Shown here one piece after another: positions 8,586 through 38,622 of a stretch of DNA of 64,000 bases (position 1 is the stretch's first letter; the number at the start of each line of letters is the position of its first letter). The stretch is from Coprobacillus sp. CAG:826. Its GTDB lineage: Bacteria > Bacillota_I > Bacilli_A > RFN20 > CAG-826. The notes beneath the pieces were generated by a model. The model made no database searches and was not told the origin of the DNA. It was given only the letters and a program-made list of their open reading frames with translations. The translations under genes and the position numbers were made by a program. Location of the stretch: the NCBI GenBank assembly GCA_000437235.1, contig FR897046.1:155664-219663 (forward strand). Direction: 5' to 3'.

Positions 8586-9485
8586 CTAAAAGTATTTCTT
8601 TAGTTCTTTTCTTGTAGTAACTAAGTCTTTTTGAAGTTGTTCTTTTAATTCTTCTAAAGAAGCAAACTTCTTTTCATCACGAATAAAAGAAACAATTTCT
8701 ATTTCTATGTTTTCTAAATAAATATCTTCATCAAAGTCTAAAATATGAACTTCAATTAAAGGATGTTTTAAAGGTTCAATAGTGGGGTGAACGCCTACAT
8801 TTATCATACTCATGTATTTTTTTTGATGAACGTACGCTAAAGCGGTATAAACACCATTTTTAGGAAGAAAATAAGGACACGCCAAATGCATATTCGCGGT
8901 TTTAAAGCCGATAGTTCTCCCGTTTTGATATCCCTTTACTACTTCACCTTTTAAATGGTAAAAGCGGCCTAAAACGTGCGTTAAATCGCTAATATCACCA
9001 TTATTTAAATCTTCAATTAATCTAGAAGTCGATAATTTTCCTTTTTTATCTTTTAATAAAGGGACAACTGTCGTAGAAAAACTTTGCTTTAATAAATCTA
9101 CATTTCCTTTTGCTTCTTTACCAAAGGTATAATCTTCACCCACAATAAGATATTGAGGTGCGAAAGTTTTTAAATACTTTTCGATAAATTCTAAAGGAGT
9201 TAGGTTAAAGAAATCCGCATCCACTTTTTGAATGAATAAGTATTCTACGCCTAATTCTTCAAGTAATTGATTTCTAGTTTCATCATCTAAGAATTTTCTT
9301 TCTTCTAGATGTAAGAACCATTGTTTAGGTGATAGATTAAACGTATAAATTGCGATAGGAAGACCAAATTCTTTCGCTTTTTTTATGAGCACCTGATGAC
9401 CTAAATGAAAGCCATCAAAAAAACCTAAGCATAAAACAAAAGGTTTTTGAATTGAAATCGGTTCTTTGAATTCTATGATTTTCAT
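8586..9485 (-). CDS. ribF: Bifunctional riboflavin kinase / FMN adenylyltransferase
   Basis: GFFDGFHLGHQ nucleotidyltransferase motif and a C-terminal riboflavin-kinase domain (GFKTANM, PLIEVHILDF). The ATG at 9485 abuts the truB stop, so the TTG at 9527 is less likely. Confidence 0.9.
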   Translation of the reverse strand: MKIIEFKEPISIQKPFVLCLGFFDGFHLGHQVLIKKAKEFGLPIAIYTFNLSPKQWFLHLEERKFLDDETRNQLLEELGVEYLFIQKVDADFFNLTPLEFIEKYLKTFAPQYLIVGEDYTFGKEAKGNVDLLKQSFSTTVVPLLKDKKGKLSTSRLIEDLNNGDISDLTHVLGRFYHLKGEVVKGYQNGRTIGFKTANMHLACPYFLPKNGVYTALAYVHQKKYMSMINVGVHPTIEPLKHPLIEVHILDFDEDIYLENIEIEIVSFIRDEKKFASLEELKEQLQKDLVTTRKELKKYF

Positions 9486-9486
9486 T

Positions 9487-10332
9487 TTAAAAAAGTCCTC
9501 TTTTAACTTTATACGTGTGTTTTTCAACTTTTTCTAAAATGGATAACACTTCTCCATTTTCATCAAGGGTAAGAAGAATATCTTCTTTTCTTAATAAACG
9601 AATGGTTTTTCCGTTAATAATATCTTTTTTAGTCGCTTCATCCACGACTTCAGTAGGAAGAAAAGATAAAGCTTCTTTTATTGAAATAAAATCTGATGCT
9701 TCTATTTCTTTTACTTTTTTAGCGTCAAAAATAGAAACCTCTCCTATTTTAGTTCTTCGTAAAGACGTTAAATGTCCGCAGGTAGATAAATCATGAGCAA
9801 TATCTTGCCCTAATTGACGAATATAAGTTCCTTTTGAACAATGCACCGAAAAAGAAAGCTGATGGTCCACATAAGACATAAAATGGATATCATGAATGGT
9901 AATCTTTCGACTGATTTCTGGTGTCTTTTCATTTGCAAAGGCATAACGATATAATGCCTTCCCTTTATATTTTACCGCAGAATACTTCGGTACCACTTGT
10001 TCGATGGTTCCTTTAAAGGTATGAAGTGTTTCTTCTATCGCTTCTAAAGATAAATCAGGAACTTCTTTTTCTAATACGACTTCTCCTTCTAAATCTAAGG
10101 TATCCGTATCCGCACCTAATAAAAGTGTGGCTTCATATTCTTTTTCTTGCGCTTCTAAATAAGGGGCAATTTTGGTTGCTTTTCCAACTAAAACGATTAA
10201 TAATCCAGTCGCAAAAGGATCCAAAGTTCCGACATGTCCGACCTTTTTCGTTTGAAATTGATGAGAGATAAAATTGACCACATCACGAGAGGTCCAACCT
10301 TTTTCTTTGTCAATGAATAAAATTCCATCCAT
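9487..10332 (-). CDS. truB: tRNA pseudouridine(55) synthase
   Basis: GHVGTLDPFATGLL catalytic-Asp motif. The start MDGILFIDKEKGWTS at 10332 has GGAGG upstream. Confidence 0.9.
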   Translation of the reverse strand: MDGILFIDKEKGWTSRDVVNFISHQFQTKKVGHVGTLDPFATGLLIVLVGKATKIAPYLEAQEKEYEATLLLGADTDTLDLEGEVVLEKEVPDLSLEAIEETLHTFKGTIEQVVPKYSAVKYKGKALYRYAFANEKTPEISRKITIHDIHFMSYVDHQLSFSVHCSKGTYIRQLGQDIAHDLSTCGHLTSLRRTKIGEVSIFDAKKVKEIEASDFISIKEALSFLPTEVVDEATKKDIINGKTIRLLRKEDILLTLDENGEVLSILEKVEKHTYKVKRGLF

Positions 10333-28538: not shown

Positions 28539-29087
28539 TTAGGATAGAAAGGCAATTTGAATCGCTTTTTCTACCAATTCAATATTTTCTTTTGATAATG
28601 TAATTTTTCCATTTGCTTTTCCTGTCATACGAGCAATTCGTCTTTTAGAAATGGAACGTATCGCATCTAGCTTTAAATAACTATGCGTTTCTTGCGATTC
28701 TTTATCATCATTTAATTCTTTAATTACGCCAATATCAAAGGTCAATGTACTTCCCGGAGCGTCTCTACTTGATAAAGGAATGACTATAATATTACCTAAA
28801 TCGACTGCCCATACCAATGCATAATGGCCTCGGGTTTTGTAGTCGCTTAACTCAGTTCCTACATTAATGCCAAATTCAACCCAGACGACATCGCCTCGTT
28901 TTAAAGAATCTGGCTGTGCACCATAGCCACTTTTTTCCATTGAACTTCGAAAATAACTTGTTTTTTTATCTAACCATGTTAAGTATTCCATTGCAACTTC
29001 CTGTTCTAATGGTGCTAATTTTGATTGAATGGAACGAAAAATTTTTTGTTCTTCTTCATAAAAAGAACGTTTCTTTTTAAAAGACAT
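28539..29087 (-). CDS. PemK/MazF-fold protein with an N-terminal extension of about 60 aa
   Basis: RGDVVWVEFGINVGTE...HYALVW...IIVIPLSS...LKLDAIRSISKRRI matches the MazF/PemK core order. The start is uncertain: ATG at 29087 or 29108, or the track GTG at 29132, which overlaps a terminator hairpin. Confidence 0.6.
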   Translation of the reverse strand: MSFKKKRSFYEEEQKIFRSIQSKLAPLEQEVAMEYLTWLDKKTSYFRSSMEKSGYGAQPDSLKRGDVVWVEFGINVGTELSDYKTRGHYALVWAVDLGNIIVIPLSSRDAPGSTLTFDIGVIKELNDDKESQETHSYLKLDAIRSISKRRIARMTGKANGKITLSKENIELVEKAIQIAFLS

Positions 29088-29133
29088 ACCTATCACCACT
29101 ATTAGCATATGTCGATTTTCTTTTTTCTCCACG

Positions 29134-30518: not shown

Positions 30519-31916
30519 TTATTTTACTTGTTTTTTTCTTCGATAAGGAAGTTCAATCAAAAGGTAGATAAATATAAAGATAACTCCAAAGAAATACTTT
30601 ACACTCCATGAACCTTGATTGCAAGAACGGCTACAAGAAGATTGGTTTTTATTTCCTTTTTTAAAGCCTAAATAGGCTGTTTTTCGATAAGCGTTATCTT
30701 CAATTTCTACTTGAAATGAAGTTGAACTTTTTTTCTTGATTTCAATCATTCCACTTTCATAAGAAACGGAATAATTTTCATCATATTCCTCATTAAAAGT
30801 AATATCACATTGATGGTAATCAATTCTTGTAAAATTAGAAAGGCCGTCATAAACATAACTAATTAAATAATTCTCTTTTTGCTGAATGATTTCTTTTTCA
30901 ATTCGTATGGGGTAAGAACATTCAAGCCGAGTAATCTGATTATTTCCTAAAAGAGGAACATCTTTATAAATTAAACAATAGTATTGTAATAAAACATCAT
31001 CAAAGAGTGTTTTTAATGACGAGAAATAGAAAGCATAAGGATTGGTTTGATTTTGATAAAGGCTCATAGCAAGATGAGACTTTAATACATTTTGCTCAAT
31101 ACCGTATGCTTCACTTTCTTTTAATGTCAAATCTTCATATGCAATTTCTTTTACTTCTATTAAACTTTCTTTATCTTCCCATAAGGAAGAATAATCTATA
31201 TTGGAATAAAAATAGGATTCTTCTGCTAAAGGGAAGGATAATGAACCGCGATAAGTACCTTTTTCTTCATTATAAGTAGTCGTCATTTCTTCTTTCACAT
31301 CGTTTAATAAGAAAAACGGCATTGATTCTTGATTGCTTGAATATTCAAAACCATATAAATTGGCATCATTATAAATAGAAGTTGGATGGACACGATACTG
31401 ATAGAGTGTGGTAGGAATTTGATCAATAAATCCCATTTCTTTTTTCATCCCTTCATAAGGAACGACTACATAATCTATTGAGGATAAAGAACGTAACATT
31501 CCATACTGTATTTCTGGTTCAATTTCTGTTGTTCTTCCATCTTGATAACAAGTTAATGTAGGCGCAATTTCATCTTTTTGATTAGAAGAAAGTAAAACGG
31601 TTTGAAAGATAGGTAATACAAATGTCACATTTTTTAAGGTTAATGCATTGTTATAAACTTCTAACGTTTGATTCACTCTTGCCTTTGAGTCTAATAAAGA
31701 TCCGGTTGGTGTTAAAGTCGATTCGTCTAAGATTTGAATTTCCGTAACAGCACTTTTTAAGGACACTCCAAATTCATTATTTTGCATAGATAAAGCATAA
31801 ATTGAGCCCTGTTCTGTCGTATTATAATAGTTATAGCGAGTCCAATCTAAAGGACAACCTGTTAAAAGCAAAGTAGAAACAAGTAAGAGACATCCACAAA
31901 TCATTCTATTTTTCAT
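30519..31916 (-). CDS. Hypothetical lipoprotein with a C-terminal transmembrane anchor
   Basis: 465 aa. Signal peptide with lipobox LLTGC and a C-terminal helix FFGVIFIFIYLLIELP followed by RRKK. No known motif. Confidence 0.6.
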   Translation of the reverse strand: MKNRMICGCLLLVSTLLLTGCPLDWTRYNYYNTTEQGSIYALSMQNNEFGVSLKSAVTEIQILDESTLTPTGSLLDSKARVNQTLEVYNNALTLKNVTFVLPIFQTVLLSSNQKDEIAPTLTCYQDGRTTEIEPEIQYGMLRSLSSIDYVVVPYEGMKKEMGFIDQIPTTLYQYRVHPTSIYNDANLYGFEYSSNQESMPFFLLNDVKEEMTTTYNEEKGTYRGSLSFPLAEESYFYSNIDYSSLWEDKESLIEVKEIAYEDLTLKESEAYGIEQNVLKSHLAMSLYQNQTNPYAFYFSSLKTLFDDVLLQYYCLIYKDVPLLGNNQITRLECSYPIRIEKEIIQQKENYLISYVYDGLSNFTRIDYHQCDITFNEEYDENYSVSYESGMIEIKKKSSTSFQVEIEDNAYRKTAYLGFKKGNKNQSSCSRSCNQGSWSVKYFFGVIFIFIYLLIELPYRRKKQVK

Positions 31917-33255
31917 TGGCGGTTCCTCCTACTTTTTCCATTTTGTTATGTTTAAAGATAATTAAAATGACAATTAAAGCAATGAAAAGAAAAGCAAACA
32001 AAAATATAAGATTGATTACTAAATTTGTATTATAGCTTTTACTTCCCTTTTTCGATAAAATTAGCATTCGAATATTATTAATTTTATATTGCCCTTCTTC
32101 TTTTTCTTCAACAGAAAAAAGCATTTCATCCTCATTAATTTCATATTTTTCTTTTACATCTCCTTGTAAAAGAACTGAAGTTTTTAAATAAGATGAATTG
32201 ATGATATCCGTAAATGGCTCAGTTCTAAATCCTTCCCAAGTAAATTCTATCGATTTTTTTCTAGTAAAGTTACTAGGATAAGAATAGATTTTTCTAAGAA
32301 CTTTTAGCGTTGTTTTTTGATTTGGATTTAAAGAAAATGAATAAAATAAAGTACTATGATGACGTCGAGAAATATATTGTTGAATCATCTCATCATGGAT
32401 GGCATAATTATCGGCTTTTCGATAGATAATCGCATCATAAACCGCTTCTTTTATCTCTTTAACTTCCACTTCAAAAGTAGAAGCTTTCTCCGATAATAAA
32501 TCAATATAAGTTTTCTTTTCTTTTTGAAGCGTGTAATTTTCTTTCGTAGAAAGAGGAGTTAAAGTCACATCTCCTAATAAATAAAAACGCACTTCTTCTT
32601 TCTTTTTCATATTGATAGATAAATATGGCTGACTGAATCCTTTTTTAAAATTGATATCTCCTTTTTCCATCCAAAAGAAACCATTCTCTAAAGAAAAATT
32701 CTCTAAAGAAAATTCTACGCTGACACTTTTATTAATTTCATTTTTAATGGTAAAACATGAGATTTCTGCATTGTCTAACCATAATTCTTGTGTGGAAGGT
32801 AAATCAATAAAAGTTGAATAAGAAGGAATATACGAATACTCCTCTTCTAAAAAATACGGATGATGAATGAGTTGTACTGGTGTCTTTTCTTCTTCATCTT
32901 GTTGGATGATTATTTCATTTTTATATTCCGTATCTTTTAAGGTATGGAGTACTGGAATATAAAAATCAATAGAAACGGATGTGGTTAAGTCTTCTTTAGG
33001 TGTAAAGACATAAATACTTTCCATGATTCCAGAAACTGAGGAAGGATGAAAAAGATTGGTAGAAGATTCGATTCCATTTAATGTAATGGTTCGATTCCAT
33101 TCTACATTTTTAACATAATCTGCGGCTATATCATCAAAATAAGGGTCATATAAGATAGGCCCTTCTTCATTCGTTATATTATTAGAAGAAATATCACAAG
33201 AGGCGCATAAAGTACTAAAAATAAGTAGTGAAAATAAAATATATTTCTTTTTCAT
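31906..33255 (-). CDS. Hypothetical secreted or lipoprotein-like protein with a C-terminal transmembrane anchor
   Basis: 449 aa. Signal peptide ending in the lipobox-like LCASC and a C-terminal helix LVINLIFLFAFLFIALIVILIIF. It overlaps the downstream gene by 11 nt. Confidence 0.6.
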   Translation of the reverse strand: MKKKYILFSLLIFSTLCASCDISSNNITNEEGPILYDPYFDDIAADYVKNVEWNRTITLNGIESSTNLFHPSSVSGIMESIYVFTPKEDLTTSVSIDFYIPVLHTLKDTEYKNEIIIQQDEEEKTPVQLIHHPYFLEEEYSYIPSYSTFIDLPSTQELWLDNAEISCFTIKNEINKSVSVEFSLENFSLENGFFWMEKGDINFKKGFSQPYLSINMKKKEEVRFYLLGDVTLTPLSTKENYTLQKEKKTYIDLLSEKASTFEVEVKEIKEAVYDAIIYRKADNYAIHDEMIQQYISRRHHSTLFYSFSLNPNQKTTLKVLRKIYSYPSNFTRKKSIEFTWEGFRTEPFTDIINSSYLKTSVLLQGDVKEKYEINEDEMLFSVEEKEEGQYKINNIRMLILSKKGSKSYNTNLVINLIFLFAFLFIALIVILIIFKHNKMEKVGGTANEK

Positions 33256-34038: not shown

Positions 34039-34314
34039 TTATAAATTTGATTTCGTCATATGTTTAACACGCGCTTCAACTTCCGCTCTTTTAGCGTCAT
34101 TAAAGCGATCTAATGTGCCTACAAGATAGCCTGTAATACGACGAATTCTTTCAAATGGTTGTGTTTTAAAATGATAAGATAAATCGACATAATCTCCATC
34201 TACTTTAATTTCTAATAAAGAAATTTCACGATCTTTATATTGTTCCTTCGCATGTTGAATATACGCGGATTTTTCTTCTTCACTTATCGCATCTCCAATT
34301 ACCCGAACTTCCAT
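34039..34314 (-). CDS. Stand-alone small protein carrying an NrdD-type glycyl-radical C-terminal motif
   Basis: 91 aa. The C-terminus ERIRRITGYLVGTLDRFNDAKRAEVEARVKHM parallels the RRxxGYLG...FNxGKxxExxxRVKH end of class III RNR. The protein contains no Cys. AAGGAGG RBS. Confidence 0.6.
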   Translation of the reverse strand: MEVRVIGDAISEEEKSAYIQHAKEQYKDREISLLEIKVDGDYVDLSYHFKTQPFERIRRITGYLVGTLDRFNDAKRAEVEARVKHMTKSNL

Positions 34315-34338
34315 GCTTTTAAGCCTCCTTGTTCTCTT

Positions 34339-34367
34339 AGTATAGTCACTTAAAAATGGAAATTCAA
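34339..34367 (-). promoter_or_regulatory. Sigma-A-type promoter candidate for the NrdD-like small gene
   Basis: Minus-strand TTGAAT, a 17-nt spacer, then TATACT, about 25 nt upstream of the ATG. Confidence 0.5.
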
Positions 34368-34377
34368 AGGATATGCT

Positions 34378-35037
34378 TTATCCATTTTCTTGAATATTTT
34401 TGCAATATGCTACAAAGTTCTTTTTCTTGTTTTTCGCTAAAAATGGGTAGATTTCAATAAGTAAAATATCTAAGTAATCCTCTAAAAAAACAATGCTATT
34501 TTCGACGATGGTATAAATTGAATCTTCTCTTTTGATATGATCATAAAGGGGCTTTTTCTCTTCATCCATTTCTTTTAAAACTTGTAGACTTTTTTTAATT
34601 TCAAATAGATATTGATAGAGTTCTTCTACATTTTTCACATAATGAACATATGCTTGATCTAAATGGTAGATTTGTAAAGTTGGTTGAAGAATATGAAGTA
34701 AATGTAAAAAATTTGCGGTGTCTCTTTCTAACTCATCATACAATTGATAAGTGAGATTTCCTTTTTCTAATGATTTTTTAACATTTTCAATACAATTTAC
34801 AAATTGATGAAAAAAGGTTTCGGAAGATAAAGCAATTTGCTCTTTTTCCTTATCCCTATCTAATTTCAACATTTCAAATTGAATCACAAAGAATGTGGTA
34901 GCAAACAAAATCACTTCTGAAGATAAAAGGATGTAGCGGACTTTTCCTACTGAAAAACAAAGTGTAATCGTTGCAAAAATCATAAAGAGTACAACCAAAG
35001 ATAAAAAAATAGAAAACAATAAATTTGTTCTTTTCAT
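34378..35037 (-). CDS. Hypothetical membrane protein (two N-terminal TM helices plus a helical cytoplasmic domain)
   Basis: 219 aa. Hydrophobic segments at about aa 5-30 and 35-58. The rest is charged and helical. No known motif. Confidence 0.5.
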   Translation of the reverse strand: MKRTNLLFSIFLSLVVLFMIFATITLCFSVGKVRYILLSSEVILFATTFFVIQFEMLKLDRDKEKEQIALSSETFFHQFVNCIENVKKSLEKGNLTYQLYDELERDTANFLHLLHILQPTLQIYHLDQAYVHYVKNVEELYQYLFEIKKSLQVLKEMDEEKKPLYDHIKREDSIYTIVENSIVFLEDYLDILLIEIYPFLAKNKKKNFVAYCKNIQENG

Positions 35038-37089: not shown

Positions 37090-38622
37090 TTAAGCTTTGG
37101 CTTTACTTGCCTTTTTTAAATCAACTGCGTGTTCGTGTTCAACGACTTCACCTTGGACAAGTCCTTTGCCTTGTAAGACTTGGTCGATTAAGGATTTAGC
37201 ACGTTTAACCGATAATTTGGATTTAACTTTTAAAAGGGTTGGAACTTCAGCATAAGATCCTTTGCTGGAGACATCGATGATTGGTAATGTGCTATCATCA
37301 AAGCTATGTGGATCTAAAGCGAAGAAGACTTTTAAGGTTTTACCTTGAATCGTCATTTTGATTAATAATTCTTTCTTATAGCGATAAGAATCTGCGGTAG
37401 CGGATACACGAGATTTAATTCCGTTATAGGCAAGAATATAAGACTTTAATTCATCATATTTGTGTTGAACTTCAGTTGGTGCTTTAACCATTTTTTCAGT
37501 AAAGCTTCTACGAATAATTTCTAAGTATTCTTTCATTGCCATTTTAGAATCATCAGGTACGATGTCTAAACGTTCAATACCACGAGAATCCATTAATTGA
37601 GCAATTAAAGCTTTTGCACGTTTGACGGATAAACTAGATTTGACTTTTAAAAGTGTTGGAACTTCGGCATAAATCTTTTTACCACTTACATCAATAATTG
37701 GATAAGTAGAATCGGTGAAAGATTTTGGATCTAAAGCTAAGAAGACTTTTAAGGTTTTACCTTGAATGTTAATCTTAACAAAGATATTTTTCTTCACACG
37801 ATAAGAATCACAATGTTTAGAAATTCTAGAACGGACACCTTCATAAGAAAGTAATTCACGACGGATTTCTAAATATTTTTGTTTCATATCATCATCTAAA
37901 GCTTCGAATTTTTCCATGAAGGTACGGCGAATAATTTCACCATAAATAGAAGTATCTAAAGTATCAATTTTTTTCTTTTCTTCTTTGGATTCTACTTCTT
38001 TTACTTCTTCCATTTCTGGAACGTTTTCAGTAGTTTCTTCTGCTTTAGGTTCTTCCTCTACAACGTTTTCTTCTTTTACGATTTCAACGTTTTCAACGGC
38101 AACTGCTTTGGTTTCTTCTTCAGCAGGAGCTGCTGGGCCTTCGGCTAATAATTTATCATGTTTCTTATCCATGATACGGGCAATAATTGCGTTGGTAACA
38201 ATTAACACAAATAAGTCAATCATTACAACAAGTGCTGCAACTGTAAGAGCTTTTGTATCGCTATTTGTAACTCTATACTCATATGAGCCACGATATTTGT
38301 AAGTTACAAGAGCCATATAAACCATAACAGCTAAGAAGATTGGAGCAAGATAAGAAAGTACTCCACGTTTGCGGATAATATTTCTTACGGTCCAGAATAC
38401 TGTAACAAAACCAGTAAGAACAGTAATAGCTAAAACAAAATAAGTTTTGCCATCCCATGGACGTTTAAATAAGAAGTTAATGGTGTAATTGGCAATTTTT
38501 CCACAGTCGGCAAAGAATGAATCTTTAACGAGTAATGCGATTAAGGCAACAAATGCAACAAAGAATACACCAACTAGGACATTCAATGCCTTATGGACTC
38601 GTTTTAATTGAGTGCTATCCAT
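37090..38622 (-). CDS. Membrane protein with an acidic linker and two tandem copies of an unknown domain of about 120 aa
   Basis: 510 aa. Four N-terminal TM helices, an E/K/V-rich linker, then repeats at aa 229-347 (nt 37582-37938) and aa 368-486 (nt 37165-37521). The repeats share IIRRxFxEK...SYRxKK...IQGKTLKVFxALDP...PIIDVS...YAEVPTLLKVKSxLSVKRAKxLI. Confidence 0.65.
   Translation of the reverse strand: MDSTQLKRVHKALNVLVGVFFVAFVALIALLVKDSFFADCGKIANYTINFLFKRPWDGKTYFVLAITVLTGFVTVFWTVRNIIRKRGVLSYLAPIFLAVMVYMALVTYKYRGSYEYRVTNSDTKALTVAALVVMIDLFVLIVTNAIIARIMDKKHDKLLAEGPAAPAEEETKAVAVENVEIVKEENVVEEEPKAEETTENVPEMEEVKEVESKEEKKKIDTLDTSIYGEIIRRTFMEKFEALDDDMKQKYLEIRRELLSYEGVRSRISKHCDSYRVKKNIFVKINIQGKTLKVFLALDPKSFTDSTYPIIDVSGKKIYAEVPTLLKVKSSLSVKRAKALIAQLMDSRGIERLDIVPDDSKMAMKEYLEIIRRSFTEKMVKAPTEVQHKYDELKSYILAYNGIKSRVSATADSYRYKKELLIKMTIQGKTLKVFFALDPHSFDDSTLPIIDVSSKGSYAEVPTLLKVKSKLSVKRAKSLIDQVLQGKGLVQGEVVEHEHAVDLKKASKAKA

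Follow-up and report, generated by a model that had tools for sequence, protein, structure and literature searches.

A 91-amino-acid (aa) protein encoded in a 64,000-nucleotide stretch of Coprobacillus sp. CAG:826 (contig FR897046.1, positions 155,664 to 219,663; the whole stretch is called the window below) was found to carry the C-terminal glycyl radical (Gly) loop of NrdD, the class III or anaerobic ribonucleotide reductase (RNR), as part of a free-standing gene product. X is used as a working label for this protein and for the family of its homologues, which is conserved across many bacteria, is linked to class III RNR through operons and NrdR boxes, and accompanies NrdDs without a Gly loop of their own. 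Class III RNR is the source of deoxyribonucleoside triphosphates (dNTPs) for strict anaerobes, and O2 destroys it by cutting its backbone at the radical glycine. To our knowledge, GrcA/YfiD, which serves pyruvate formate-lyase (PFL), has stood alone for 25 years as a remedy of this type. Our comparisons make it highly probable that X donates its Gly loop to NrdD in trans, as either a spare or an obligate part. In the window genome itself, there is about an even chance that X acts as a spare or alternative radical loop beside an intact NrdD. Moreover, X is rather probably the first autonomous glycyl radical module beyond PFL, having arisen from the NrdD loop independently of GrcA.

An NrdD-type radical loop on a family-specific domain

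The window protein (MEVRVIGDAISEEEKSAYIQHAKEQYKDREISLLEIKVDGDYVDLSYHFKTQPFERIRRITGYLVGTLDRFNDAKRAEVEARVKHMTKSNL) contains no cysteine. An initial annotation had described a Cys-free open reading frame (ORF) of 91 aa whose last 32 residues carry an NrdD-type radical motif and which lacks the Zn ribbon and catalytic barrel of NrdD. The ORF was confirmed on the minus strand with an ATG start, and the motif was borne out by Pfam, NCBIfam, and PDB matches far above chance, except that the quoted stretch covers residues 55 to 86 and is followed by five more (TKSNL). The proposed profile comparison gave a significant match to Pfam NRDD (PF13597; E = 3.3e-7, 29.8 bits, gathering score 26.2), in which residues 52 to 85 aligned with profile positions 531 to 562 of 562, and no match to Gly_radical (PF01228) for X (E ≤ 10) or for four homologues (E ≤ 1), GrcA itself matching at 7e-19. 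Four NCBIfam NrdD equivalogs matched X through their final 30 to 40 positions only, with E values down to 2.5e-11 and scores of 16 to 43 bits, compared with whole-protein cutoffs of 326 to 764; the NrdD models compared were Pfam PF13597 and NCBIfam TIGR02487, PRK07111, and PRK14704.

The sole significant PDB sequence match of X was the C-terminus of Prevotella copri NrdD (8p23, E = 4e-5), aligned as HIDKLQRITGYLVGTTDRWNSGKLAELHDRVTHI. In this alignment G62, Y63, and R70 of X, all three invariant in the family, pair with Gly711, Tyr712, and Arg719 of P. copri NrdD, of which Gly711 is the radical site while Tyr712 and Arg719 contact the substrate or the flap (PMC11226230). Compared with residues 676 to 739 of P. 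copri NrdD and with T4 NrdD, the loop and the helix that follows it are homologous in X and identically spaced, reading RITGYLVGTxDR(F/W)N...RV(K/T)H. Thus, the C-terminal glycyl radical loop of NrdD (RxxxGY...RVxH) is present in X, whereas the ten-stranded alpha/beta barrel with its catalytic cysteine finger loop is absent, and a predicted beta-alpha-beta-beta N-domain takes the place of the four-cysteine Zn ribbon that precedes the loop in NrdD. The glycyl radical domain of NrdD holds a Zn site and is covalently joined to the barrel, whereas X, having no cysteine and hence no Zn site, is unattached.

At least about 8,000 homologues of X at 90% clustering were recovered by protein search, and at least 599 matching stretches were found in GTDB species representatives, with hosts including Ruminococcus, Oscillospiraceae, Christensenella, Lachnospiraceae, Erysipelotrichaceae, and Acholeplasmatales, among others. 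The best 120 homologues are all 83 to 114 aa long, share 58 to 99% identity over >90% of their length, and are named either "hypothetical protein" or "anaerobic ribonucleoside-triphosphate reductase." Across an alignment of 35 sequences, 27 positions are invariant, 22 of them in residues 53 to 86 (P53, R56, R58, R59, I60, T61, G62, Y63, L64, V65, G66, T67, D69, R70, F71, N72, K75, E78, R82, V83, K84, and H85) and five in the N-domain (E14, A17, Y18, D39, and G40). A profile of the 52-residue N-domain, searched against 1.84 billion representatives, matched at least 348 clusters at 50% identity (105 at E ≤ 1e-10), nearly all of them small proteins with the domain at the N-terminus; longer proteins with the domain (172 to 305 aa) look like frameshifts or assembly chimeras and were rejected as real fusions. 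The N-domain, predicted by AlphaFold2 (AF2) to fold as beta-alpha-beta-beta, had no relative in Pfam, in PDB sequences (best profile E = 0.27), or among PDB folds searched with Foldseek, and Pfam, NCBIfam (June 2026), and PHROGs contain no model dedicated to X. In phage and plasmid collections, tblastn retrieved two unannotated fecal fragments with a full X, the remaining matches being NrdD C-termini. As judged from these searches, X constitutes a large uncharacterized family.

Four genomic contexts of X

X occurs in operons with intact nrdD, in operons with loop-less nrdD, as a free-standing chromosomal gene, and as a lone gene in phages. Operons of the type nrdD(intact)-X-nrdG-nrdR were found in three lineages (L007, L173/L174, and L177), with one extra gene between nrdD and X in L173/L174; in one further intact bacterial lineage, nrdD-nrdG has no adjoining X. 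Over the 32 residues of the loop, X and the NrdD of the same operon differ by no nonsynonymous change in L007 and L177 and by two in L173, along with six to nine synonymous codon differences, and the similarity ends sharply at both loop edges. Near-identical loops despite synonymous differences therefore argue for selection on a shared interaction surface rather than for a recent copy, and the comparison indicates that X coexists with intact NrdD under selection that holds the loop sequence constant. The gene between intact nrdD and X in L173 (6333-6986) and L174 (6333-7067) encodes 217 to 244 aa without a Pfam match and may represent an additional part of the system; this gut lineage is very abundant, its NrdD (P0300) being listed in 129 blocks of the public assembly collection. 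In addition, short Cys-rich tails (CC, CxC, or CxxC) follow RVKH in many NrdDs of the sampled clade and in many members of the X family, such as ...HFMSECNCD, ...HSLECSCAEF, and ...HSVCC. They were seen in L007 (4570-4983), in the X genes of L167, L169, and L171, and in the NrdDs P0263, P0266, P0283, P0337, P0319, and P0358; the Cys-free window X has no such tail.

In a second set of loci, NrdD lacks its own Gly loop. Among 80 IMG/VR loci, 13 encode an NrdD that stops after the Zn ribbon (e.g., ...CPCCGRTEYITQKETIRRLK*), followed by X and then nrdG, with the stop codon of nrdD and the start codon of X often overlapping. Chromosomal nrdD(loop-less)-X-nrdG-nrdR operons, in which NrdD carries an ATP-cone, were found in bacteria as well (L167, L169, and L171). 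The loop was missing from 56 (47%) of the 120 nearest relatives of a phage NrdD, with 64 retaining it, and from 24 (20%) of the 120 nearest to the L007 NrdD, with 96 retaining it. Loop-less NrdDs are 84 to 85% identical to intact ones, keep the barrel, the Zn ribbon, and the ER[IL][KR]R strand, and stop or diverge at the glycine position. At least seven different short tails were distinguished among them, and repeated loss of the loop from NrdD is therefore suggested. Activated glycyl radical enzymes are cleaved by O2 at the glycine (PMC13450708), and the end point of loop-less NrdD mimics the product of this cleavage. Every loop-less NrdD inspected had X and nrdG in the nrdD-nrdG operon, with X adjoining nrdD or one to two genes away; in five places examined, the intact sister phage NrdD was directly followed by nrdG, with no X. 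Genome comparison thus indicates that X can supply the loop in trans; otherwise, the conserved loop-less NrdDs, to which nrdG still belongs, would be left with no radical site.

Unrelated genes are interposed between these genes in some phage loci, and nrdD and X are therefore separate genes there rather than a freshly broken ORF. For instance, a 354-aa protein that resembles an endolysin by eye and a 50-aa ORF (8752-9816 and 9818-9970 of L108) lie among loop-less nrdD, X, and nrdG, as do unassigned proteins of 174 and 180 aa in another locus (9381-9905 and 10319-10861 of L144). No homing endonuclease, intron, or intein was found at the nrdD-X junctions inspected. A split intein or trans-splicing at these junctions was considered and rejected, given that the tails comprise only 1 to 30 residues, that X has no intein-like end, that overlapping codons typify translational coupling, and that genes intervene. 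Loop-less NrdDs often retain a tail, such as ...THGECASLESF compared with intact ...HDTCCSLETFDD, and the retained Cys tails hint that the loop was excised in frame and that the tail has a role of its own, possibly in redox chemistry. Among the relatives of the phage NrdD, the proteins P0156, P0181 (742 aa), and P0174 (789 aa) were also noticed, comprising apparent MazG-NrdD fusions and one NrdD-NrdG fusion without a Gly loop; these could be real fusions or frameshifted assemblies.

Most chromosomal copies stand apart from nrd genes. Of the best 80 genome loci among at least 599 matches in species representatives, 79 have a free-standing X, and only L007 has nrdD and nrdG within 10 kb; no neighbor of X was conserved beyond close relatives in these 80 genomes. 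NrdR boxes are 16 bp long and in promoter regions usually form a pair with a linker of 15 to 16 bp. When single boxes (consensus ACACWATATATWGTGT, ≤3 mismatches, within 150 nucleotides upstream) were counted, they preceded 27 of 76 free-standing X genes but none of the 324 intergenic regions used as controls (Fisher p = 4e-22), while the positive control gave a box at about -52 in 7 of 7 nrdD operons checked. The commonest spacing to a second box at free-standing X genes was 31 to 32 bp, the operator geometry published for NrdR (PMC13584703). Together with the operon linkage, these boxes tie X to class III RNR.

Temperate phages carry X alone, flanked by tape-measure or tail genes on one side and by genes for lysis or an integrase on the other, and in a 44,072-bp IMG/VR contig that was fully rebuilt, X was the only NrdD- or NrdG-like ORF. 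NrdR boxes were rare at phage copies (3 of 66). The gene content of these phages shows that a lone phage X would have to act with a noncognate host enzyme. In one prophage with a lone X (IMG/VR contig 3300045988_166461; L152 8890-9864, 11942-13045, and 15900-17027), X lies beside a gene for a membrane protein that resembles acyltransferase-3 by eye and is likewise of a typical accessory kind; two tyrosine-integrase-like genes, also assigned by eye, may reflect two elements or a duplication of the integrase.

Proposed trans-acting radical domain, alternatives, and known systems

Loop-less operons, intact operons, lone phage copies, and NrdR control together make a trans-acting radical domain the best-supported explanation of X. 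As for the mechanism, we infer that NrdG, the radical-SAM (S-adenosylmethionine) activase, would abstract hydrogen from Gly62 of X, whose loop (RRITG*YLVGT...RVKH) would then enter the alpha/beta barrel of an NrdD with a missing or destroyed loop and pass the radical to the catalytic cysteine. The N-domain, replacing the Zn ribbon, may serve docking, activase recognition, or both, and in the window genome X would restore an RNR cut by O2 at its radical glycine, on the principle of GrcA/YfiD. Indirect support for such activation and repair comes from the pairing of X with nrdG and with NrdDs that end where O2 would cut. The initial annotation had proposed a donor or repair module for NrdD. A trans-acting loop carrier tied to class III RNR agrees well with the operons shared with nrdD, nrdG, and nrdR and with the NrdR boxes, whereas for the spare role in this genome the chances are about equal either way. 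That annotation had also counted a split gene as refuting the spare part; the family is used both ways, accompanying intact NrdDs and providing loop-less ones with their only loop.

Several points weigh against this explanation. The Zn ribbon, according to what Logan et al. in 2003 and Luttringer et al. in 2009 are said to have found, is required to generate the glycyl radical of NrdD, so that activation of X alone is not self-evident; activation of the ribbon-less X may take place on the NrdD core, which keeps the ribbon. The AF2 model of X (mean pLDDT 76.5, pTM 0.40) draws the loop as one long helix, and a Foldseek search of PDB with this model returned nothing under E = 0.045 and only ribosome hibernation factors at a template modeling (TM) score of ~0.3, which is uninformative, so that the predicted structure lends the NrdD link no structural support. 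Upstream of the window X there is no NrdR box; the closest candidate in the 200 nucleotides searched has seven mismatches. In addition, where X shares an operon with intact nrdD, it is cotranscribed rather than induced by stress, which suits a routine partner no less than an emergency spare. Furthermore, any NrdD of the window genome lies outside the 64 kb seen, and the balance between a spare loop, for which the chances seem even, and the sole loop, which looks clearly less probable, rests on other genomes. The similarity of X sequences was tried as a guide to context and discarded, the window X being 56 to 65% identical to members of all four types and thus offering no discrimination.

The most serious alternative, which we regard as possible though doubtful, is a two-piece class III RNR in which X is the obligate radical subunit: this genome would have a loop-less nrdD, and X, as its sole glycyl radical carrier, would be essential to the enzyme rather than a spare. 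Such arrangements are common, as seen in L167, L169, and L171, in the 13 IMG/VR loci, and in the 20% and 47% of bacterial and phage NrdDs sampled, and X shows high conservation and, like a core RNR gene, is coregulated by NrdR in many species. However, the loop-less NrdDs inspected have X within their nrdD-nrdG operon, whereas 30 kb or more separate the window X from any nrd gene; intact NrdDs outnumber loop-less ones by 96 to 24 in the sampled clade, X is also present in three of the four lineages with intact NrdD that were inspected, and a lone phage X cannot belong to a cognate split pair. The spare role is favored because loop-less NrdDs have X in their operon, intact NrdDs predominate, and free-standing and phage copies fit a detachable spare.

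Much less probable is the suggestion, raised in the initial annotation, that X is a decoy or regulator that mimics the activase substrate and titrates NrdG or buffers radical equivalents without ever entering NrdD. The display of an activase recognition loop without a catalytic barrel and the position of X between nrdD and nrdG would suit such a role, and phage copies could thereby aid host takeover; however, the loop-less NrdDs paired with X would then be dead, yet they are 84 to 95% identical across many lineages and keep nrdG, and the residues of X equivalent to Tyr712 and Arg719, which make barrel, flap, and substrate contacts, are invariant in addition to the activase-facing glycine. This role is therefore disfavored, because X has to be competent for catalysis wherever the loop is gone from NrdD. 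Least probable, and very improbable in our view, is a gene remnant left by the decay of a partly duplicated nrdD, or else a protein of unrelated function with an incidental resemblance to the end of NrdD: the shortness of the protein, the absence of nrd genes nearby, and the weak promoter evidence are outweighed by thousands of intact homologues of constant length with 27 invariant positions, a specific conserved N-domain, a strong ribosome-binding site (RBS), synteny kept between species, and the recurrence of the exact sequence in 700 public assembly blocks. On the strength of the family conservation, the synteny, and this recurrence, a pseudogene was rejected.

The trans-acting reading has a precedent in GrcA/YfiD, which has been proposed to replace the loop of its O2-cleaved parent enzyme after activation by the activase of the parent (PMC13450708, PMC8683613). 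Escherichia coli GrcA/YfiD (PF01228, IPR011140) and X are both small free-standing proteins in which a noncatalytic N-terminal part is joined to the radical loop of the parent enzyme, without its barrel, and in both cases the parent retains a strand that overlaps the spare part, which for X is the ER[IL][KR]R strand of loop-less NrdDs. The precedent named in the initial annotation thus holds as a functional analogy but not as homology, since BLASTP gave E = 2.3 and PF01228 did not match. The partner of GrcA is PFL with its activating enzyme (PFL-AE), whereas that of X is RNR with NrdG; the N-terminal part of YfiD is disordered, whereas that of X is predicted to be a folded domain. The parent enzyme keeps its loop, as it does with GrcA, in L007, L173, and L177 but not in L167, L169, L171, and the 13 phage loci. 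Unlike the PFL spare parts as known, X is in addition the only loop available to enzymes that naturally lack one, a use for which we know of no report with PFL. X probably evolved independently, as an autonomous radical domain that serves RNR.

Phage T4 encodes a PFL spare part as well, Y06I (PMC13450708). Like Y06I, X in temperate phages without nrdD and nrdG is a phage-borne autonomous radical loop for a host enzyme, but its target enzyme and sequence family are different, and some phages pair X with a loop-less NrdD of their own. Split RNRs in which two genes reassemble without splicing are known from class II (NrdJa/NrdJb of Pseudomonas) and from Aeromonas phage Aeh1 (NrdA-a/NrdA-b), and nrdD interrupted by an intron or intein has also been described (PMC9669993, PMC3653736). 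The former resemble the nrdD(loop-less)-X pairs in that two genes encode one catalytic polypeptide. However, the detached piece X is the radical cofactor itself plus an N-domain, coexists with intact NrdD, and travels alone, and none of the known split RNRs compared has a detached radical loop.

A search of 8 million full texts and bioRxiv, with subscription-only literature lying outside it, returned nothing that describes a spare part for NrdD or a separate radical subunit of this enzyme, in agreement with the earlier statement that no equivalent for the anaerobic RNR had been characterized. According to a review of June 2026, formate lyases are the only enzymes with known spare parts, and the existence of such parts for other glycyl radical enzymes is "yet to be determined" (PMC13450708), and a 2021 paper in the Journal of Biological Chemistry likewise leaves spare parts for other glycyl radical enzymes possible (PMC8683613). 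The X family is thus a concrete and widespread candidate for a non-PFL spare part, on which natural NrdDs ending at the cleavage site appear to rely. If this is true, the covalent Gly loop of NrdD is dispensable, two-piece class III RNRs, a new two-subunit architecture, have evolved repeatedly in Clostridia and their phages, and O2-damaged anaerobic RNR would be repairable in gut anaerobes. Moreover, NrdG would activate a Gly loop without an attached Zn ribbon, calling into question the requirement for the ribbon in cis, and temperate phages would spread X as a plug-in for the host RNR, a new kind of phage auxiliary gene for nucleotide supply. Such a role would also account for the ~90-aa "anaerobic ribonucleoside-triphosphate reductases" annotated in many Bacillota genomes, and it would be relevant to how well abundant anaerobes of the human gut and the rumen tolerate oxygen; the exact window protein recurs in 700 blocks of public assemblies.

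Expression signals and neighborhood in the window

The features of the X gene are compiled in Table 1. Among the expression signals listed in the initial annotation, the RBS is present as described, whereas promoter and terminator stand only in part. The promoter sequence exists but is statistically undistinguished, as eight sites of such quality were found versus 7.9 expected in this AT-rich region, which is chance level. The hairpin gains support from RNA folding, with -11.4 kcal/mol, z = -3.6, and none of 200 shuffles equally stable, but a simple terminator scan made no call there because the stem holds only two G-C pairs.

Table 1. Features of X and of its expression signals in the window.
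Feature	Position	Strand	Basis
X gene (family-specific N-domain + NrdD-type glycyl radical loop)	34039..34314	-	ORF, ATG start, 91 aa
X N-domain, residues 1-52, predicted beta-alpha-beta-beta	34159..34314	-	Alignments, AF2 secondary structure
X glycyl radical loop, residues 53-86, PFERIRRITGYLVGTLDRFNDAKRAEVEARVKHM	34057..34158	-	Homologous to the final ~34 residues of NrdD
GGC codon of Gly62, predicted radical glycine	34129..34131	-	Alignment with PDB 8p23, family invariance
Shine-Dalgarno sequence AAGGAGG, 9 nucleotides 5' of ATG	34324..34330	-	Read from the sequence
Candidate sigma-70-like promoter TTGAAT-17-TATACT	34339..34367	-	9 of 12 positions match; directly past the stop of the upstream gene
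Hairpin + T8 tract, candidate intrinsic terminator, 4 nucleotides past the stop codon	34003..34035	-	RNA folding

The window has a GC content of 34% and represents a housekeeping region, with genes for PNPase, IF-2, NusA, and TypA and a gal operon; no NrdD core, NrdG, or NrdR is encoded within its 64 kb, so that X, with flanks of about 30 kb on each side, adjoins no nrdD. The gene order TypA, membrane protein, X, HAD hydrolase is kept in a relative (L290) whose X is 74% identical. The upstream neighbor on the same strand, separated from X by a 63-bp gap, encodes a predicted membrane protein of 219 aa without a Pfam match (34378-35037, minus strand); it adjoins X in L290 too, and cotranscription with X is possible. 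Downstream of X and the HAD gene lie two ORFs that adjoin and overlap each other (465 aa at 30519-31916 and 449 aa at 31906-33255, both on the minus strand), with lipoprotein-like N-terminal signals, C-terminal hydrophobic segments, and no Pfam match, whose position is likewise kept in L290. Farther away, a 510-aa protein without a Pfam match (37090-38622, minus strand) combines an N-terminal membrane region and an acidic linker with an internal duplication of ~130 aa (YEGVRSRISKHCDSYRVKKNIFVKINIQGKTLKVFLALDP / YNGIKSRVSATADSYRYKKELLIKMTIQGKTLKVFFALDP). A PemK/MazF-like toxin domain (residues 78 to 195, E = 1.5e-12) follows a 77-residue N-terminal extension in the product of 28539-29132 (minus strand), a gene located directly downstream of that for a RimO/MiaB-type methylthiotransferase.

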